Below, one piece after another: positions 27,293 through 33,116 of a DNA stretch of 34,004 nt (its first letter is position 1; each line of letters opens with the position of its first letter). A program made the position numbers and the translations under genes. Below the pieces are notes generated by a model, which saw only the letters and a program-made list of their open reading frames with translations, ran no database searches and was not told where the DNA came from. Origin of the DNA: Gammaproteobacteria bacterium (GTDB taxonomy: Bacteria > Pseudomonadota > Gammaproteobacteria > Eutrophobiales > Eutrophobiaceae); assembly GCA_963422205.2 (NCBI GenBank), contig CAXMWX010000008.1, positions 1 to 34,004 of the forward strand, read 5' to 3'.

Positions 27293-27556
27293 GCGCTATG
27301 CCGTTTTGTGTTCGGGTAAAAACCGCCATGATGATGCCATGACGGTACGATATCAGCAAAAGCGGCTTATCACCCAAGTCAACGTGTCTGTGCTGCCCCT
27401 GGCTTACTGTGTGCATACCTTGGGGGAGGTGCAAGGCCAGCGCGGTATTTTTGCTGCACGGCTGCCGGGGTGAGCCGTTTCGTCTCACAGAAGCAGCGTT
27501 TGCCTCAGAGCTTGCAAGGTTCTACGGGGCCATGCGGCAGGTCTAAACGAACAGAA

Positions 27557-27985
27557 TCATCCCTTCCATTTTGTCAACAGTTTGGCGTTCAATGAAATAT
27601 CAATGTAGACCGGGGAGGTGACGCTTTTCTTGTAAATGCTCACCGTAGTCTGGTCTTTCGCTAATACCAAATTCGCTGTGTCAGGCCGGGTTTTGACGAG
27701 ATTCCTAAGCGGCTCTTCGATCATTTGCGTGACTTGATGGATGGCTTTATATACGCTGTGCCAGTGCCTGTAATTTTCCAGTGGCGATATGTGGGCATCG
27801 CAAAGAAAGGCATAATAACTCCACAAGATAGCCGATATGGCATCTCCCAGGCCCGGGTGAACATACAGCGATTCTAACAAGTCATAATCCTGACTTCCGA
27901 ACAGCAGATGATCGCCGGTTTGCTCTTCCAGAGAGAAGACAGGGCGTTGTATTTTTCTATTCATATATTTTAGATGTTTAAACAA
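27557..27985 (-). CDS. Hypothetical protein (142 aa from TTG, or 135 aa from ATG 27964)
   Basis: Open frame beginning 15 bp after the deiodinase-like gene on the same strand. No recognisable motif. Confidence 0.5.
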   Translation of the reverse strand: MFKHLKYMNRKIQRPVFSLEEQTGDHLLFGSQDYDLLESLYVHPGLGDAISAILWSYYAFLCDAHISPLENYRHWHSVYKAIHQVTQMIEEPLRNLVKTRPDTANLVLAKDQTTVSIYKKSVTSPVYIDISLNAKLLTKWKG

Positions 27986-28000
27986 TGCAGATTCTTAAAA

Positions 28001-28711
28001 TCAGCCCTGATTCCACTGGACGATGTCAGCCAGCGGTTTGCGGCTTAACTTCGGCACCCTGGCATCATCTGCCGGGTAGCCCACGGGCAGCAGCAGTACC
28101 GGCGTTTCATTGGCCGGCCTGTTTAACAACTCTTTTAAGAAATTCATCGGGTTGGGCGTGTGGGTCAGTGTGGTTAAACCGATATGGTGTACAGCGGCGA
28201 TGAACAGCCCGGCACTGATGCCAACGCTCTCCTCAACATAGTAATTTTTGATCTTCTCGCCTTTATCGTTTACCTGATAACGCTGTTTGAATAACACGAT
28301 GATCCAGGGGGCATCGGTGATGTGTTCTTTAATCCAGTCGGTGCCCAGCTTCGCCAGGGCCAGGCGCCAGGCATCGGTCATGCGCTCGGTGTAGGAGCGA
28401 TATTCCTCCTCCTCACAGGCCGCACGAATCTTCTCCTTCAATGCCTGATCGTTGATGGCAACATAATGCCAGGGCTGTTGGTGTGCGCCGGAGGGGGCGG
28501 TGTTGGAAGTCTTTATCGCCAGCTCGATCAGGGTTTTTGGCACCGCCCGTTGGGAGAAATGCCGGGTCGTGCGGCGGCGGTTGCATTCGGCATACCAGTC
28601 CTGTGCACGTTGCAGCATCTCATCTTCCGGCCGGGAAGTGAAGGCCAGCGGTTCATATTCGGGCTCGGGCAGGTCGGGGTACAGCCGACGGTAAGTGTTT
28701 TTCTCGCTCAT
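28001..28711 (-). CDS. Iodotyrosine deiodinase-like flavoprotein (nitroreductase superfamily, IYD subgroup)
   Basis: RRTTRHFS, TAPSGAHQQPW, lid EEEEYRSY...TDWIKE, YYVEESVGI, TLTHTP, LLLPVGYP...VPKL.RKPL. ATG at 28711 has an AGGAG RBS (236 aa). Confidence 0.9.
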   Translation of the reverse strand: MSEKNTYRRLYPDLPEPEYEPLAFTSRPEDEMLQRAQDWYAECNRRRTTRHFSQRAVPKTLIELAIKTSNTAPSGAHQQPWHYVAINDQALKEKIRAACEEEEYRSYTERMTDAWRLALAKLGTDWIKEHITDAPWIIVLFKQRYQVNDKGEKIKNYYVEESVGISAGLFIAAVHHIGLTTLTHTPNPMNFLKELLNRPANETPVLLLPVGYPADDARVPKLSRKPLADIVQWNQG

Positions 28712-28730
28712 CAGGGACTCCTGTTGGTGT

Positions 28731-28738
28731 TTAAGCAT
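28731..28738. repeat. Target-site duplication, left copy (TTAAGCAT)
   Basis: Abuts the left inverted repeat; 7/8 identical to TTAAGTAT at 31837-31844. Confidence 0.8.
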
Positions 28739-28760
28739 GGAATTTATATGCTTGGCTCCA
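28739..28760. repeat. Terminal inverted repeat (IRR relative to the transposase)
   Basis: GGAATTTATATGCTTGGCTCCA versus the reverse complement of 31815-31836, TGGGTTTATATATTTAACTCCA. Confidence 0.75.
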
Positions 28761-28780
28761 GCATTGTCAAATTTACGAAA

Positions 28781-29950
28781 TTAATCTGTGATTTCGGCAT
28801 CGGTGTGCCTCATATCAAAGGCTAGTATGCCACTATTCTCTTCTTCGACATTGAATTCCACTCTGCTCTGGAAGATAATTTCCTCAACTACGGTTTTGAT
28901 TTTTCCCTCTGAAACAATCGTATCAAATTGTGATAGAAGCATTGGAACATTAATGATCTCTTCGACACATTCAATATAGCGATCAACAATCCTTTTGATG
29001 CCATATTTAGCAGTCGCTTGGATGCGTAATTTTTCCTTGATTGTGTCTGTCATTTCTTCGGTCTTCACGACAAAAGTGATTGGATATCTCTGCACCTTGT
29101 CAATGTCTAAGAAATACTTGCCTGCATATACGGTCTCAGTGACTTGGAAAAATCATCCGAGAGGACGCATAACGAAGTCAATACCACCATCATTTGCATT
29201 TGTCCTGCCTGTCTTAAATAGAGTGAGACTCGTTTCATTCAGCTCTTCGGGCGACCATCCCCAGAACAGAATCCTCTCAGAATAATGTTGTTTCAAAATG
29301 GCATAACTAACGATCTCGAAAACACGAGCATCCACGTTTGGCTGCAAAAGTTGCTTGATGAATTTGGTAGCTGAAGAAATATCTTTGTTTTCGATCTCAA
29401 GAAGTTGAGCACACTCATCCATAAATGAATTGAAAGATGCCATTCTTACTGCAACATAGAATTTGACAATTTCCAGAACTGAAGAGGCCAAATTTACAGG
29501 CATTCCGTCAACGCTGATTTTTATTAGGCTCTCATTGATCCAGTATATGTTTGATGAAACGTCCCTGATGATTGGAAGAGAGTCTTCTAATGGGAAGTAC
29601 TTTCTGAACTCTTCGTTCAGTCTATGATTCAAAGCGTGGTTCTGTAATTTGCTACCGAACGGAAGCTCCCTTTGGCGTTTGAATAAACAAGAAAATTGTG
29701 AACCTTCATAATCCGTATAGTTCAAGTCCCCATCAAAACCATGTGCTAAGTAATCTTCGATGAGAACGTAAAGAGCTTAGTGATTTGCGAAGCTCGCTCT
29801 AGACTTTGAGCTTCTGTCCGCAGCCTTTGTCTTGATGTTGAGATATTGCAGTAAAGGGCTTCTCTCCAAAGCTTCTTCGCCATTACAGCCAGTCTTATTG
29901 CTGACTATCGATACAATTTTTTCGGTGAACCCGTGTTTATTTACTGGCAT
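28781..29950 (-). pseudogene. Putative type II restriction endonuclease (389 codons) with two in-frame nonsense codons
   Basis: Single frame from ATG 29950 (MPVNKHGFTEKI) to TAA 28781, interrupted by TAA at 29779-29777 and TGA at 29155-29153. Nuclease-like GRTNANDGGIDF...FFQVT segment. Overlaps the MTase stop by 14 bp. Confidence 0.8.
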
Positions 29951-30854
29951 AGAACAGATCCTCTACAGCCTCCTCTGCACGAGCATTCTTGATCCCATTT
30001 CGATTCTTCTGCTTGGTGGTTTTTTGCGGTGCGGTCAAAACTCTACCGTCTACTTCGGTGAACTCCAGAACTCGCCGTAGCCCAATATCCACATACTTAC
30101 TGTGAGATTCGACTCCTATGGTTTTGCGTCCTAATCGCTTTGCTACTGCACAGGTGCTGAACGTTCCAGAAAAAGGGTCAAGTATTGTGTCGTCTTTGTT
30201 AGAGCTAGCTAAAATCAATCTTTCAAGAAGTGCTTCGGGTTTTTGTGAGGGGTGGTCTTCATACTCTTCCATACGGTATCTGACGCGGGAGAATTCCCAC
30301 ACATTACCGGGAACTTTCTTTGAATTGTACAGAGTTGGGACAGGTTTGCGATAATCAATCAGCCTTCTTTTGGCTCCCGTCTTTGCTTCTACTGCGATAT
30401 CATCGGCATTAAAGGTATAACTCTTCTTGTTTTTCACGCAAAACAGTAGAGGTTCATACATTGATCCATAGTGCTTTTTGGCCTGCATTACAGAACTGTC
30501 ATAGCTCCAAACAATCCGAGAGAGGATGTGGGTTTTTGATCTAAGATACAGGTCAAGGTAAGGCATCGCTTGAGTGCTGGTCATTACGTACATTGATCCA
30601 TGGTCGGTCAATTTGTCTAAACACAAATCAAGCCAAACCTTACACCATTCGGCATAGGCTTCATCAGAAGGCCACTTATCGTCAAAGTCGCCAAAGCGTT
30701 TCCCTATGTTGTAGGGCGGGTCGGCGAAAATAAGATCAACCGAATTGTCAGGTATATCGTCCCGAAGTACGCAAAGGGCGTCCCCTTGAAATATCAAATG
30801 TAAATCGTTCTCATATTTTTTCGGTCGTTTTTGCATCATTCGAATTCTTCTCAT
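29937..30854 (-). CDS. yhdJ: Beta-class amino-DNA methyltransferase, YhdJ-like (probable ATGCAT m6A)
   Basis: DLIFADPPYNIGK precedes LDPFSG (beta order). IVWSYDSS..QAKKHYGSMYEP, VEAKTG..R.LIDYRK and KVPGNVW.F.RVRY match E. coli YhdJ as recalled. Confidence 0.88.
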   Translation of the reverse strand: MRRIRMMQKRPKKYENDLHLIFQGDALCVLRDDIPDNSVDLIFADPPYNIGKRFGDFDDKWPSDEAYAEWCKVWLDLCLDKLTDHGSMYVMTSTQAMPYLDLYLRSKTHILSRIVWSYDSSVMQAKKHYGSMYEPLLFCVKNKKSYTFNADDIAVEAKTGAKRRLIDYRKPVPTLYNSKKVPGNVWEFSRVRYRMEEYEDHPSQKPEALLERLILASSNKDDTILDPFSGTFSTCAVAKRLGRKTIGVESHSKYVDIGLRRVLEFTEVDGRVLTAPQKTTKQKNRNGIKNARAEEAVEDLFYASK

Positions 30855-31779
30855 CCAATTAAATTTGCATACGTCAGTCGCTTACCAAATGCACAACCAA
30901 CCATCGCATCAATGCGATCCAACGTATGAACCCGCACATTCCCATCATTCATGCGAAATACGAATTCATCAATATAACGATCAATGTGCTTCTTACTGAA
31001 GTGATGAAGTGTCCCCTGATAACCACGCTTCAACACCGCCCACATGGATTCAATCTCGTTCGTTGATGCCATGCCATTCACAAATTCACCCACTGAATGA
31101 TTAACGAGGACATGATGATACCCACGAATCCGCTTATAAAATGTCGCTTCATCCATTGAAATCGTACTTCTCTGAGCAATCTTCTGACCCATGAATTCCT
31201 GCATATTACGTGTATTTACACGATCCATAGACTTCGCCTTAACCCGTCCATCCCGACTTCTCGTACCAACGACGACTTTCTTTGTTTTGGTGGAACGCCC
31301 TTGCGTCCCTTCGGTGCGTTTAGGGGTGTGTTTGTTATTCTCTAAACCGCTCACATAGGCTTCATCAATTTCAACGATACCACCAAGGAAATCATCGTCA
31401 TTGTCATCCTTACAGGCTTCACGAATGCGTTGAAGCATGAACCAGACTTTTGCGTGATACCCAGTTCCCTCGACAACTGCATAGATGATATGCCTTTACG
31501 GGATGTCACGATGAGATAGATCGCGAATATCCATTTATGCAGGGGGATATGGGAGCGTTCAAAAATGGTATTGGTTCTGACTGTAAATTCCTGCTTGCAC
31601 GACTGACAACGGAAATATCCAAGGCGGACACCTTGTCGCTTTGTAATCTTTTCAGAACCACAACGGGGAAACGTTATACTTTCAGGCCAACGTTTTTCTT
31701 CGAGATACGTTCTTGCACTTTCCTGATCTGGAAATCTTTCGAATAACTGAAACACTGAAATTGTAGATTTGCTCATCAT
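30851..31779 (-). pseudogene. IS1595-family (ISXO2-like DDE) transposase, frameshifted
   Basis: Zn-ribbon/HTH half (F.CQSC..FTVRT.TIFE.SHIPL.KW...KGISSMQL.RELGITQK) and catalytic half (WFMLQRIREA, VEIDE, DE, VNHS, TN.IES.W, Y..EF..R) are in different frames, with the break near 31441-31450. Confidence 0.92.
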
Positions 31780-31814
31780 ATCATCCTTATCTCCAATATA
31801 GAAAGAAAAATAGG

Positions 31815-31836
31815 TGGAGTTAAATATATAAACCCA
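31815..31836. repeat. Terminal inverted repeat (IRL relative to the transposase)
   Basis: TGGAGTTAAATATATAAACCCA, 35 bp upstream of the transposase start. Confidence 0.75.
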
Positions 31837-31844
31837 TTAAGTAT
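31837..31844. repeat. Target-site duplication, right copy (TTAAGTAT)
   Basis: Abuts the right inverted repeat; 7/8 identical to 28731-28738. Confidence 0.8.
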
Positions 31845-32117
31845 TCAGCGCAATCTTTCATGCAGGGCCATATCTGTCACCCAGAGGCAAAGCAGCAGGC
31901 GTGCACCCTCTTCAAGGCCGGCGATATAGGCTTTTTGTCCAGACACATCGCCTTTCAGCCGTTTCAATTCGCTCACACTGGCACCGATAGACTGGGTCAT
32001 GGCATCGTTGATATGCAGGTCGGCGACATCCAGCCGCCTTGTCAGGCGGAGTGTCTGCTCGCCAAACAGCCGGGATAAGAAGGCCGATGTCTGCTCATCC
32101 TGCTCAGAGACAGTCAT
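31845..32117 (-). CDS. Hypothetical protein (~90 aa)
   Basis: Helical, protein-like sequence from MTVSEQDEQ. The extension to 32207 looks non-coding. Stop abuts the target duplication. Confidence 0.55.
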   Translation of the reverse strand: MTVSEQDEQTSAFLSRLFGEQTLRLTRRLDVADLHINDAMTQSIGASVSELKRLKGDVSGQKAYIAGLEEGARLLLCLWVTDMALHERLR

Positions 32118-32281
32118 GGGCGTGTGGGTGTGATGCGATGCGGGCAAGGGCAGGGAGGTGGTGGGCGTGTTTATCAAAAAGCGCAAAGGGGACAAGGCGA
32201 TACGCACGGCAGATGCCGGGGCGCGCTGTAGAAGGTTGTCTTACGGGTGACATCAAACAGCGATTGCAGCTTTTGTTCCTG

Positions 32282-32470
32282 CTATGGTGCGAATGACAAC
32301 TTGAGGATGAAGGCCAGGATGACTAACATCAGGCCCAGCATCCATCGGGTCGTTGTACGCATCTCGATCAAAATTGACCGCATATCGTCAATTTCGTCTG
32401 CTGCCTGCTTTGCTTCTTCTTGTGGTGCGCCCGCAGATACCAGCGCACGATACAGGGCGGTTCCGCTCAT
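32282..32470 (-). CDS. Small tail-anchored coiled-coil protein (DUF1640/CCDC90-like architecture)
   Basis: LYRALVSAGAPQEEAKQAA head, short coiled stalk, RWMLGLMLVILAFIL C-terminal TM. Confidence 0.6.
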   Translation of the reverse strand: MSGTALYRALVSAGAPQEEAKQAADEIDDMRSILIEMRTTTRWMLGLMLVILAFILKLSFAP

Positions 32471-32545
32471 TGGTTTATGTAGATTTCACGTTGTTGCTTT
32501 CTCATAACGCACTTGACCGGCAGCGCAATTCGTGATGCCTGCCGG

Positions 32546-32911
32546 CTATTTCTTAAAGAAACTCATGAGCCTGGCAAGGAATCCCTCTTGCTGTTGTACC
32601 AGCCTTCTCTTACTGGCTGTTTTTTTTCTGACCACTTTTTTTCTGACTGCCCTTTTTTTGCTCACCTTACGGGCAGAACCTCCGCCCCCTAAAATCGACT
32701 TCAGCCGATCGCCAGCTTCCGGGCCGATTTTTTTCTCAACTTTGCTAATTAAATAGGGCTTCTCATAGCCTTTTGACAGCAAGTCCTTCAGAATATCCTT
32801 GATGGTTGCATCATCTTTTTGCTTGTCACAAGCAATACACAAGGCCTCCAGCAGCGTCTCCGACCACATCGTCCTCGCTTCGGTCTTTGTATCATCATTA
32901 TCTTCGGTCAT
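32546..32911 (-). CDS. Hypothetical protein with Lys/Arg-rich repeats and a C-terminal amphipathic helix
   Basis: 121-aa ORF: helical N-terminal domain, GGGG linker, KVSKKRAVRKKVVRKKTASKRR, terminal EGFLARLMSFFKK. Confidence 0.65.
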   Translation of the reverse strand: MTEDNDDTKTEARTMWSETLLEALCIACDKQKDDATIKDILKDLLSKGYEKPYLISKVEKKIGPEAGDRLKSILGGGGSARKVSKKRAVRKKVVRKKTASKRRLVQQQEGFLARLMSFFKK

Positions 32912-33020
32912 CTTGTGGTCACGCTCATTGTTTTCCGGCTGTCATTATCAACCCATATCCGCTTAATTAGCAAGTGATATAGCCGCGTATTGCACATAAA
33001 TTTGCATATCAGTCAACCAT

Positions 33021-33050
33021 TTGGCAGATTATAGCGGGAATCAATATGAT
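33021..33050 (+). promoter_or_regulatory. Putative sigma70 promoter of argB
   Basis: TTGGCA-18 bp-TATGAT followed by GCCACGCC. Confidence 0.4.
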
Positions 33051-33116
33051 GCCACGCCTTTTAGCCTGTTGCCTGGCTTATTGCCCGGGCGATTTATCCA
33101 ATAAAGACCGCTAACC

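Follow-up and report, generated by a model that had tools for sequence, protein, structure and literature searches.

Insertion sequences (IS) which carry passenger genes, termed transporter IS (tIS), are described as confined to the IS1595 and IS66 families in those passages of the TnCentral preprint, PMC3129680, and PMC11891212 which treat them. Within the IS1595 family, tISCpe8 and MTnSag1 are described as possessing 25-bp repeats and 8-bp duplications in the relevant part of PMC5704250, and transposon-like restriction-modification (R-M) units with imperfect inverted repeats and an 8-bp target duplication were reported by Furuta, Abe, and Kobayashi in 2010 (PMC2853133), the Introduction of which cites the IS1595 family paper with respect to R-M and solitary methyltransferase genes associated with IS. 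The locus considered here comprises positions 28739 to 31836 of a 34,004-nucleotide stretch, referred to as the window (contig CAXMWX010000008.1 of assembly GCA_963422205.2, positions 1 to 34,004, forward strand), from a gammaproteobacterium of the Eutrophobiaceae. It very probably represents one 3098-bp IS1595-family tIS, which carried a transposase, a DNA methylase, and a restriction endonuclease and was inserted as a unit. Following insertion, the transposase gene lost 4 nucleotides (nt) and the endonuclease gene gained two nonsense codons, and the methylase gene was kept intact.

The window element resembles tISCpe8 and MTnSag1, as depicted in that part of PMC5704250, in combining an IS1595-type DDE transposase with terminal inverted repeats, 8-bp duplications, and passenger genes located in between. 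This likeness is one of description and does not extend to the cargo, which in tISCpe8 and MTnSag1 comprises lincosamide resistance and mobilization functions, whereas the window element carries a methylase and an endonuclease and its transposase is broken. A similar resemblance by description applies to the units of Furuta et al., in which R-M genes lie between imperfect repeats with an 8-bp duplication and which in N. gonorrhoeae include a third gene with a transposase motif, although their repeats are 26 and 65 bp in length and their R-M types are other than that of the window (PMC2853133). In the sections of that paper concerned with these units, the enzyme responsible for their movement was left open, whereas in the window the family of the transposase is identified and the ends recur with other cargos.

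Full-text literature searches, beyond the reach of which lay the IS1595 family paper (Siguier et al. 2009), found no paper on an IS1595 element with an R-M pair. A first-pass annotation of the window, made from the letters alone, had hinted that an IS1595 element with a YhdJ-type R-M pair might be undescribed; IS1595 elements with passenger genes are in print, however, and the element belongs to this already described kind rather than to a new one. The central proposal of that annotation, namely, that one IS1595-family element encloses the transposase, methylase, and endonuclease genes, was borne out, relatives of the element sharing its layout with intact genes and perfect 8-bp duplications.

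Ends, target duplication, and gene content of the window element

The left terminal inverted repeat (IRL; 31815 to 31836, plus strand), which reads TGGAGTTAAATATATAAACCCA, is located 35 nt 5′ of the transposase ATG at 31779, while the right terminal inverted repeat (IRR; 28739 to 28760, oriented on the minus strand), which reads GGAATTTATATGCTTGGCTCCA on the plus strand, is distal to the cargo and lies 20 nt from the endonuclease stop codon (28781 to 28783). When compared as inverted repeats, the two are identical at 15 of 22 positions, and six of the seven mismatches are transitions. Each is abutted exactly by one copy of an 8-bp direct repeat, TTAAGCAT on the right (28731 to 28738) and TTAAGTAT on the left (31837 to 31844), which agree at seven of eight positions and are placed equivalently to the 8-bp duplications of relatives. 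The repeat coordinates, their degree of identity, both spacings, and the exact abutment of both repeats by TTAAGYAT, all of which had been noted at first pass, were reproduced from the sequence. The ends of relatives read GGGGATTATATAC, and those of the window element read GGGTTTATATA and GGAATTTATAT. Elements of the ISNwi1 subgroup of the family possess GGnnATTAT-type ends and generate an 8-bp duplication, their passenger-carrying forms measuring 1.75 to 4.75 kb; from such ISfinder end motifs only, the window element is presumably a member of an ISNwi1-like group.

The repeat pair alone is not significant, since its core (I5) is one of 48 inverted pairs of similar quality returned by a repeat search of 3.8 kb. 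An independent test of the ends was, however, provided by a 22-nt consensus derived from three relatives (L016, L020, and L034, where L denotes a retrieved locus), with the window itself excluded and up to three mismatches allowed. This consensus matched the 34-kb window at exactly two positions in inverted orientation, 28739 to 28760 (three mismatches) and 31815 to 31836 (one mismatch), against an expectation of 0.00 matches from 100 shuffles. The same two sites were the only matches in the entire 2,988,056-base genome, and the reversed-pattern control yielded none (0/0). Neither this consensus search nor a comparison of ends detected a repeat-like sequence directly after the transposase gene, and no internal repeat was found. 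A sliding GC profile, proposed at first pass as a check, likewise outlined the element: GC content is 0.38 to 0.46 across a block extending from about 28700 to 31850 as opposed to 0.52 to 0.59 immediately outside, and the step coincides with the ends of the low-GC, 3098-bp segment (28739 to 31836). The element is, in summary, bordered by 22-nt repeats (15/22) and an 8-bp duplication (7/8), its ends being homologous to those of relatives with 8/8 duplications, and the methylase gene and endonuclease pseudogene lie between its transposase and its right repeat, as is the case for a tIS.

All three genes are encoded on the minus strand in the order transposase, YhdJ-type adenine methylase, type II restriction gene. 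The IS1595-family transposase pseudogene (30851 to 31779, minus strand) consists of a zinc-ribbon open reading frame (ORF) (31351 to 31779; PF12760, 35.2 bits, cut-off 25.4) and a DDE ORF (30851 to 31438; PF12762, 121.4 bits, cut-off 27; NF033547, 129.6 bits, cut-off 75). The two domains occupy separate frames, the DDE ORF being in the −1 frame relative to the zinc-ribbon ORF, whereas relatives encode both in one ORF. A 4-nt gap is present between positions 31444 and 31445, and all three aligned relatives (3/3) possess these 4 nt within a single frame.

The adenine DNA methyltransferase gene of the YhdJ type (29937 to 30854, minus strand) is intact. Its 305-amino-acid (aa) ORF matches PF01555 (191.6 bits) and scores 443.5 bits against the NCBIfam equivalog of the E. 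coli YhdJ family, PRK11524 (cut-off 292), and its translation exhibits DPPY and FSGTFST motifs. The first ATG of this ORF overlaps the transposase stop codon; the ATG at 30839, located 12 nt past that stop, is the more likely start (300 aa), as the nearest homologues (84% identical) are 296 aa in length.

The type II restriction endonuclease pseudogene (28781 to 29950, minus strand) comprises one 389-codon frame interrupted by two in-frame stops, TAA at 29777 to 29779 (codon 58) and TGA at 29153 to 29155. It aligns in a single frame with an annotated restriction endonuclease from a plasmid of Lactiplantibacillus plantarum (37% identity over 359 aa; tblastn), and 5597 homologues were recorded in the protein collection, of which the matches listed are intact proteins of 370 to 406 aa, with a best identity of 86%. 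The source annotation of these homologues is limited to “restriction endonuclease,” and no Pfam, NCBIfam, or PDB sequence match was obtained. The window element thus encodes a type II methyltransferase, as judged from domain scores and motifs, and lacks an intact cognate endonuclease.

Two sequencing runs of one study, one of which had a word depth of 519, yielded an identical sequence over positions 28300 to 32300; these runs may include the window's own source, and the agreement indicates that the lesions in the transposase and endonuclease genes are not one-off assembly errors. An alternative genetic code as an explanation for the endonuclease stops was rejected, as two different stop codons are involved and the other genes of the genome read normally. 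The expression “whole restriction-modification system” used at first pass consequently requires amendment, only the methylase gene being intact, and the further description of a mobile defense module fits neither part of its present state: with the transposase broken the element is immobile, and with the endonuclease truncated at codon 58 it is without restriction. The methylase, in contrast, most likely persists as an orphan enzyme, as predicted from its intact reading frame. Loss of the endonuclease before the methylase is the expected course of type II decay because the reverse order is lethal, a point given as established knowledge in the Introduction of PMC2853133. Such a pattern, in which the methylase is retained after loss of the endonuclease and the transposase, is of interest since an orphan methylase can still shape the methylome of its host.

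With respect to the insertion itself, a transposase combining a zinc ribbon and a DDE domain would, from what is understood of the family, have recognized both 22-nt terminal inverted repeats and moved the entire segment, presumably a co-directional operon of transposase, YhdJ-type N6-methyladenine methylase, and type II endonuclease, as one unit. This unit would have landed in the AT-rich 8-bp target TTAAGYAT within a spacer of 27 nt which separated a 90-aa ORF from a nitroreductase gene, and would have duplicated the target. The element thereby constitutes a clean, bounded case in which a 3-kb IS brought an R-M pair into a chromosome as its passenger.

Relatives of the transposase and their cargos

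Relatives were sought using the DDE-domain ORF alone as query, and cargo could, therefore, not bias their retrieval. Thirteen loci from genome contigs and 13 from metagenome contigs were obtained, these 26 loci representing 22 distinct elements, as L015, L017, and L025 are one IS in one genome and L034, L035, and L038 correspond to a single element with identical flanks. A gene with a DNA-methyltransferase domain starts within about 30 nt of the transposase end in 14 of these 22 elements, several such genes overlapping it by 1 to 8 nt. The methylase belongs to PF00145 in L016, L020, and L034, to PF02384 and/or PF07669 in L019, L023, L030, L032, L033, and L039, to PF02086 in L022, to PF13651 in L024 and L041, and to PF01555 in L042, while that of L036 is 63% identical to the methylase of the window. 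A nuclease or specificity gene follows in several of these 14, examples being an NgoBV endonuclease in L034, a GmrSD/HNH protein in L024, and a Methylase_S protein in L030. Among the other elements, L018 and L040 carry nuclease or helicase genes without a recognized methylase, L037 carries an unassignable ORF, and the 1341-bp L015-type element carries no cargo; no cargo was called in L021, L026, L027, and L031 (contig ends, fragments, or host genes).

For elements with both ends, repeat identities were counted by ourselves. Two identical copies of the cargo-free IS occupy different sites (L015 and L017; 1341 bp each), both with repeats matching at 21/22 positions and each with a perfect (8/8) duplication of its own, TTTCTTTA and TAAACTAA, respectively. 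Corresponding values are 2715 bp, 21/22, and a 7/8 duplication for L016; 2720 bp, 19/22, and an 8/8 duplication (ATAATTTA) for L020, which encodes an intact transposase, a 5-methylcytosine (m5C) methylase, and a 250-aa ORF; 3034 bp, 21/22, and a 7/8 duplication for L034/L035, which encodes an m5C methylase and the NgoBV endonuclease; 4781 bp, 22/22, and an 8/8 duplication (AAGAAAAA) for L018; and 3600 bp and 22/22 for L032. The m5C/NgoBV element of L034/L035 is found again, left flank included, in L038 (710 to 2439), where about 1.16 kb separates the two parts of the transposase match, a finding which suggests an insertion inside the transposase gene.

Cargo type does not track the relationships of the transposases. 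The nearest transposase is that of L030 (87% identity at the amino acid level, 84% at the nucleotide level), which is sister to that of the window with an SH-aLRT value of 100 in a weak tree of 16 rows, only 1 of the 13 inner branches of which is strongly supported; duplicate, broken, or fragmentary transposases (L017, L025, L021, L023, L027, L034, L035, and L038 to L042) were left out of this tree. DNA homology between L030 and the window stops at the last transposase codons and resumes only at the terminal repeat, and the L030 cargo, a 687-aa HSDR_N plus N6_Mtase protein and a 479-aa specificity subunit, is unrelated to that of the window, which indicates that cargo has been exchanged. Conversely, the YhdJ-type methylase of L036 lies behind a transposase which is only 56% identical to that of the window and which groups in the tree with those of elements whose cargos include an HNH helicase and an Eco57I-like methylase.

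As judged from these sequences, the window element and its relatives belong to a clade of IS1595 elements with the same ends, the same transposase-to-cargo junction, and many different R-M modules. Since most elements returned by a search based on the DDE domain alone carry DNA methylases or nucleases of many types within such shared ends, the lineage appears to act repeatedly as a carrier of defense and epigenetic modules, and this comparative result outweighs the single copy in the window. It may even be, although we advance this tentatively, that the transposase clade is a specialized R-M vehicle with fixed ends and a fixed junction, at which the methylase start codon often overlaps the transposase stop, and in which unrelated whole R-M modules are swapped between the junction and the right repeat. 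Were this so, transposase and methylase would be co-expressed on arrival, before restriction starts, and small IS elements would represent a systematic route of R-M spreading, of which no account was found in the searchable literature.

Alternatives to insertion of a single passenger-carrying element

Several observations weigh against the insertion of the window element as a single tIS. Its repeats agree at only 15/22 positions, as opposed to 19 to 22/22 in six relatives with both ends, and its duplication at 7/8; L032, although both of its ends were found, shows no evident duplication; and a cargo-free homologous IS exists (L015/L017), the right repeat of which is positioned 330 bp past the transposase. 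Furthermore, the window element is single-copy in its own genome according to a genome search and, its transposase being broken and no empty site having been found, displays no ability to transpose. No further copy sharing both cargo and ends was detected in that genome, among the 26 transposase-anchored loci, or in 400 Pseudomonadota genomes searched with the endonuclease, and intact transposase-methylase-endonuclease copies with the same ends, which the first-pass annotation had suggested looking for, were thus not retrieved from the loci and genomes searched. No report of experimental transposition within this clade was found in the literature examined. As no empty site was identified, insertion as a single unit rests on the ends and the duplication rather than on a before-and-after comparison.

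The alternative which survives best is a possible, if doubtful, chimeric origin, in which the IRL and transposase derive from an L030-like tIS and the cargo and IRR from another, the two having recombined near the 3′ end of the transposase gene prior to insertion. In its favor, the 15/22 repeat identity is an outlier against the values of the six relatives. The IRR of the window is closer to the IRR of L020 (18/22, own count) than to its own left repeat (15/22), and the left repeat of the window differs little from the right end of L030 (28/32 nt in an alignment spanning the repeat). Post-insertion decay does not readily account for 7 changes in 22 positions, since the duplication differs at only 1 of 8 positions and the pseudogenes carry three disabling lesions in about 2.1 kb, and it is this difficulty which lends the chimera its limited probability; the end of L030 nucleotide homology at the transposase stop and the discordance between cargo types and the transposase tree point in the same direction. 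Set against these points, no donor combining such a cargo with such a right repeat was retrieved, mismatched repeats are frequent among IS elements, a comparison over 22 nt involves few positions, and strong support is confined to one inner branch of the tree. A chimeric origin would in any event refine, and not replace, the interpretation of the locus as a single tIS.

A second alternative, that an ordinary IS1595 element landed beside a pre-existing R-M island, the distal repeat and the 8-bp repeat having arisen by chance or being left over from another IS copy in a former compound structure, is very improbable. It gains some plausibility from the cargo-free IS mentioned above and from the occurrence of the methylase-endonuclease pair elsewhere. 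With the endonuclease as query, matches at an E value of ≤1e-20 were obtained in 3 of 400 other Pseudomonadota genomes, and a fourth locus (in genome G028) was recovered by a DNA search; methylase and endonuclease genes are adjacent in all four chromosomal loci (L013, L061, L062, and L063), and no IS1595 transposase was detected in any of the four, each of which spans 8 to 13 kb. Similarly, YhdJ-type pairs on Lactiplantibacillus and Klebsiella plasmids display the same methylase-then-endonuclease order as the window, and the L. plantarum plasmid copy, the methylase and endonuclease of which are 53% and 37% identical, respectively, to those of the window, has no IS1595 transposase among its nine annotated features. 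These plasmid and chromosomal pairs, unlike that of the window, lie apart from an IS1595 transposase, and the pair is, therefore, best regarded as an independent module which was captured by this IS lineage.

The arrangement within the window nevertheless speaks against a pre-existing island. The consensus which the distal repeat matches was obtained from other elements and occurs at only two sites in 2.99 Mb, there is no repeat-like sequence behind the transposase, and the methylase start, which either overlaps the transposase stop or follows it by 12 nt, leaves no room for an IS end. In addition, both the change in GC content and the 7/8 duplication enclose the entire 3098 bp, and 14 of the 22 elements have a methylase gene behind the transposase, L016, L020, L032, and L034/L035 holding this gene inside their repeats.

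The least probable reading of all, and one which was rejected, is that a programmed −1 frameshift, as used by IS1, to which the IS1595 family is related, would still allow the transposase to be made and the element to move: although the DDE frame is indeed −1 relative to the zinc-ribbon frame, the break coincides with the 4-nt deletion relative to all three aligned relatives, its sequence is not of the slippery form X XXY YYZ, all 13 full-length relatives in the tree have one uninterrupted transposase ORF of 305 to 411 aa, and the frame of L030, the contig of which starts inside the gene, is unbroken across the junction.

Two observations made on these loci concern the fate of cargo. In L015 (6583 to 6913), about 330 bp of non-coding sequence separates the transposase stop from the right repeat, which may be the remnant of a lost cargo or a landing pad for a new one. 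The pair in L013 (5585 to 6972; genome G028, beside valS) is degraded and without a transposase, only a 195-aa ORF of the methylase and fragments of the endonuclease being left, and it represents another case of this R-M module decaying in place; the methylase alone is present in genome G022.

State of the element in its genome and insertion site

Apart from the broken transposase of the window element, the genome encodes just one IS1595 transposase which is intact; it is 39 to 41% identical to that of the window and belongs to a different element with different, perfect 25-nt repeats; mobilization of the window element in trans consequently seems unlikely. In the plasmid collection, 16 records match the element, each over ≤14% of its length, and the nearest transposases found are unnamed metagenomic proteins.

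A second IS1595 tIS of 2971 bp, apparently intact, is located in the same genome (L051, 4625 to 7595, corresponding to about 32624 to 35594 of contig C1 of G000). Both its 25-nt inverted repeats and its 8-bp duplication (TTCGCATT) are perfect, and it encodes a 305-aa transposase which is only 39 to 41% identical to that of the window, an overlapping 325-aa m5C methylase (PF00145), and a 339-aa ORF without a Pfam match. Separately, three proteins resembling the transposase (P0125, 66%), methylase (P0257, 82%), and endonuclease (P0009, 81%) of the window are each recorded on a 241,117-base ENA contig, and may together form an intact tIS with the same cargo.

The gene on the right flank of the element encodes a nitroreductase-family protein (28001 to 28711, minus strand; PF00881, 68.7 bits), the ATG of which, at 28711, is preceded at a distance of 7 nt by GGAG and is located 19 nt beyond the duplication. 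On the opposite side, the co-directional 90-aa ORF (31845 to 32117, minus strand) ends at the insertion point, the left copy of the duplication directly following its stop codon (31845 to 31847); the longer, 120-aa form of this ORF (31845 to 32207) yielded no Pfam match. As the duplication starts right after this stop codon and ends 19 nt before the nitroreductase ATG, the element occupies what would otherwise be a 27-nt spacer between two co-directional genes.

An empty site was not found in a DNA search of 40 relatives with positions 27500 to 33100, which matched only short gene pieces. Nitroreductase orthologues were detected by a protein search in 3 of these 40 relatives, the best being that of G017 (74%), the nitroreductase locus of which contains none of the six other window neighbors tested and no homologue of the 90-aa ORF, and the sole same-genus genome compared (92% complete) is without the flanking gene. 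Likewise, no joint skipping the element was present in the contigs of the two sequencing runs, although contigs cannot reveal rare variants.

The insertion separated the nitroreductase gene from its upstream neighbor. Two promoter-like sites were identified by consensus match only, both on the minus strand. The first is located at the left end, upstream of the transposase gene (31795 to 31823; TTAACT, 17 nt, TATATT; 9/12), and the second is directed outward from inside the right end (28741 to 28770; TTGACA, 18 nt, TAAATT; 10/12), where it might conceivably drive the nitroreductase gene. Beyond the 90-aa ORF, a stretch of about 90 nt (32381 to 32472), which lies within a 62-aa ORF (32282 to 32470), recurs at five further places in the genome, on contigs C2 and C13, with 73 to 83% identity, a distribution which points to a small multi-copy gene or repeat family.

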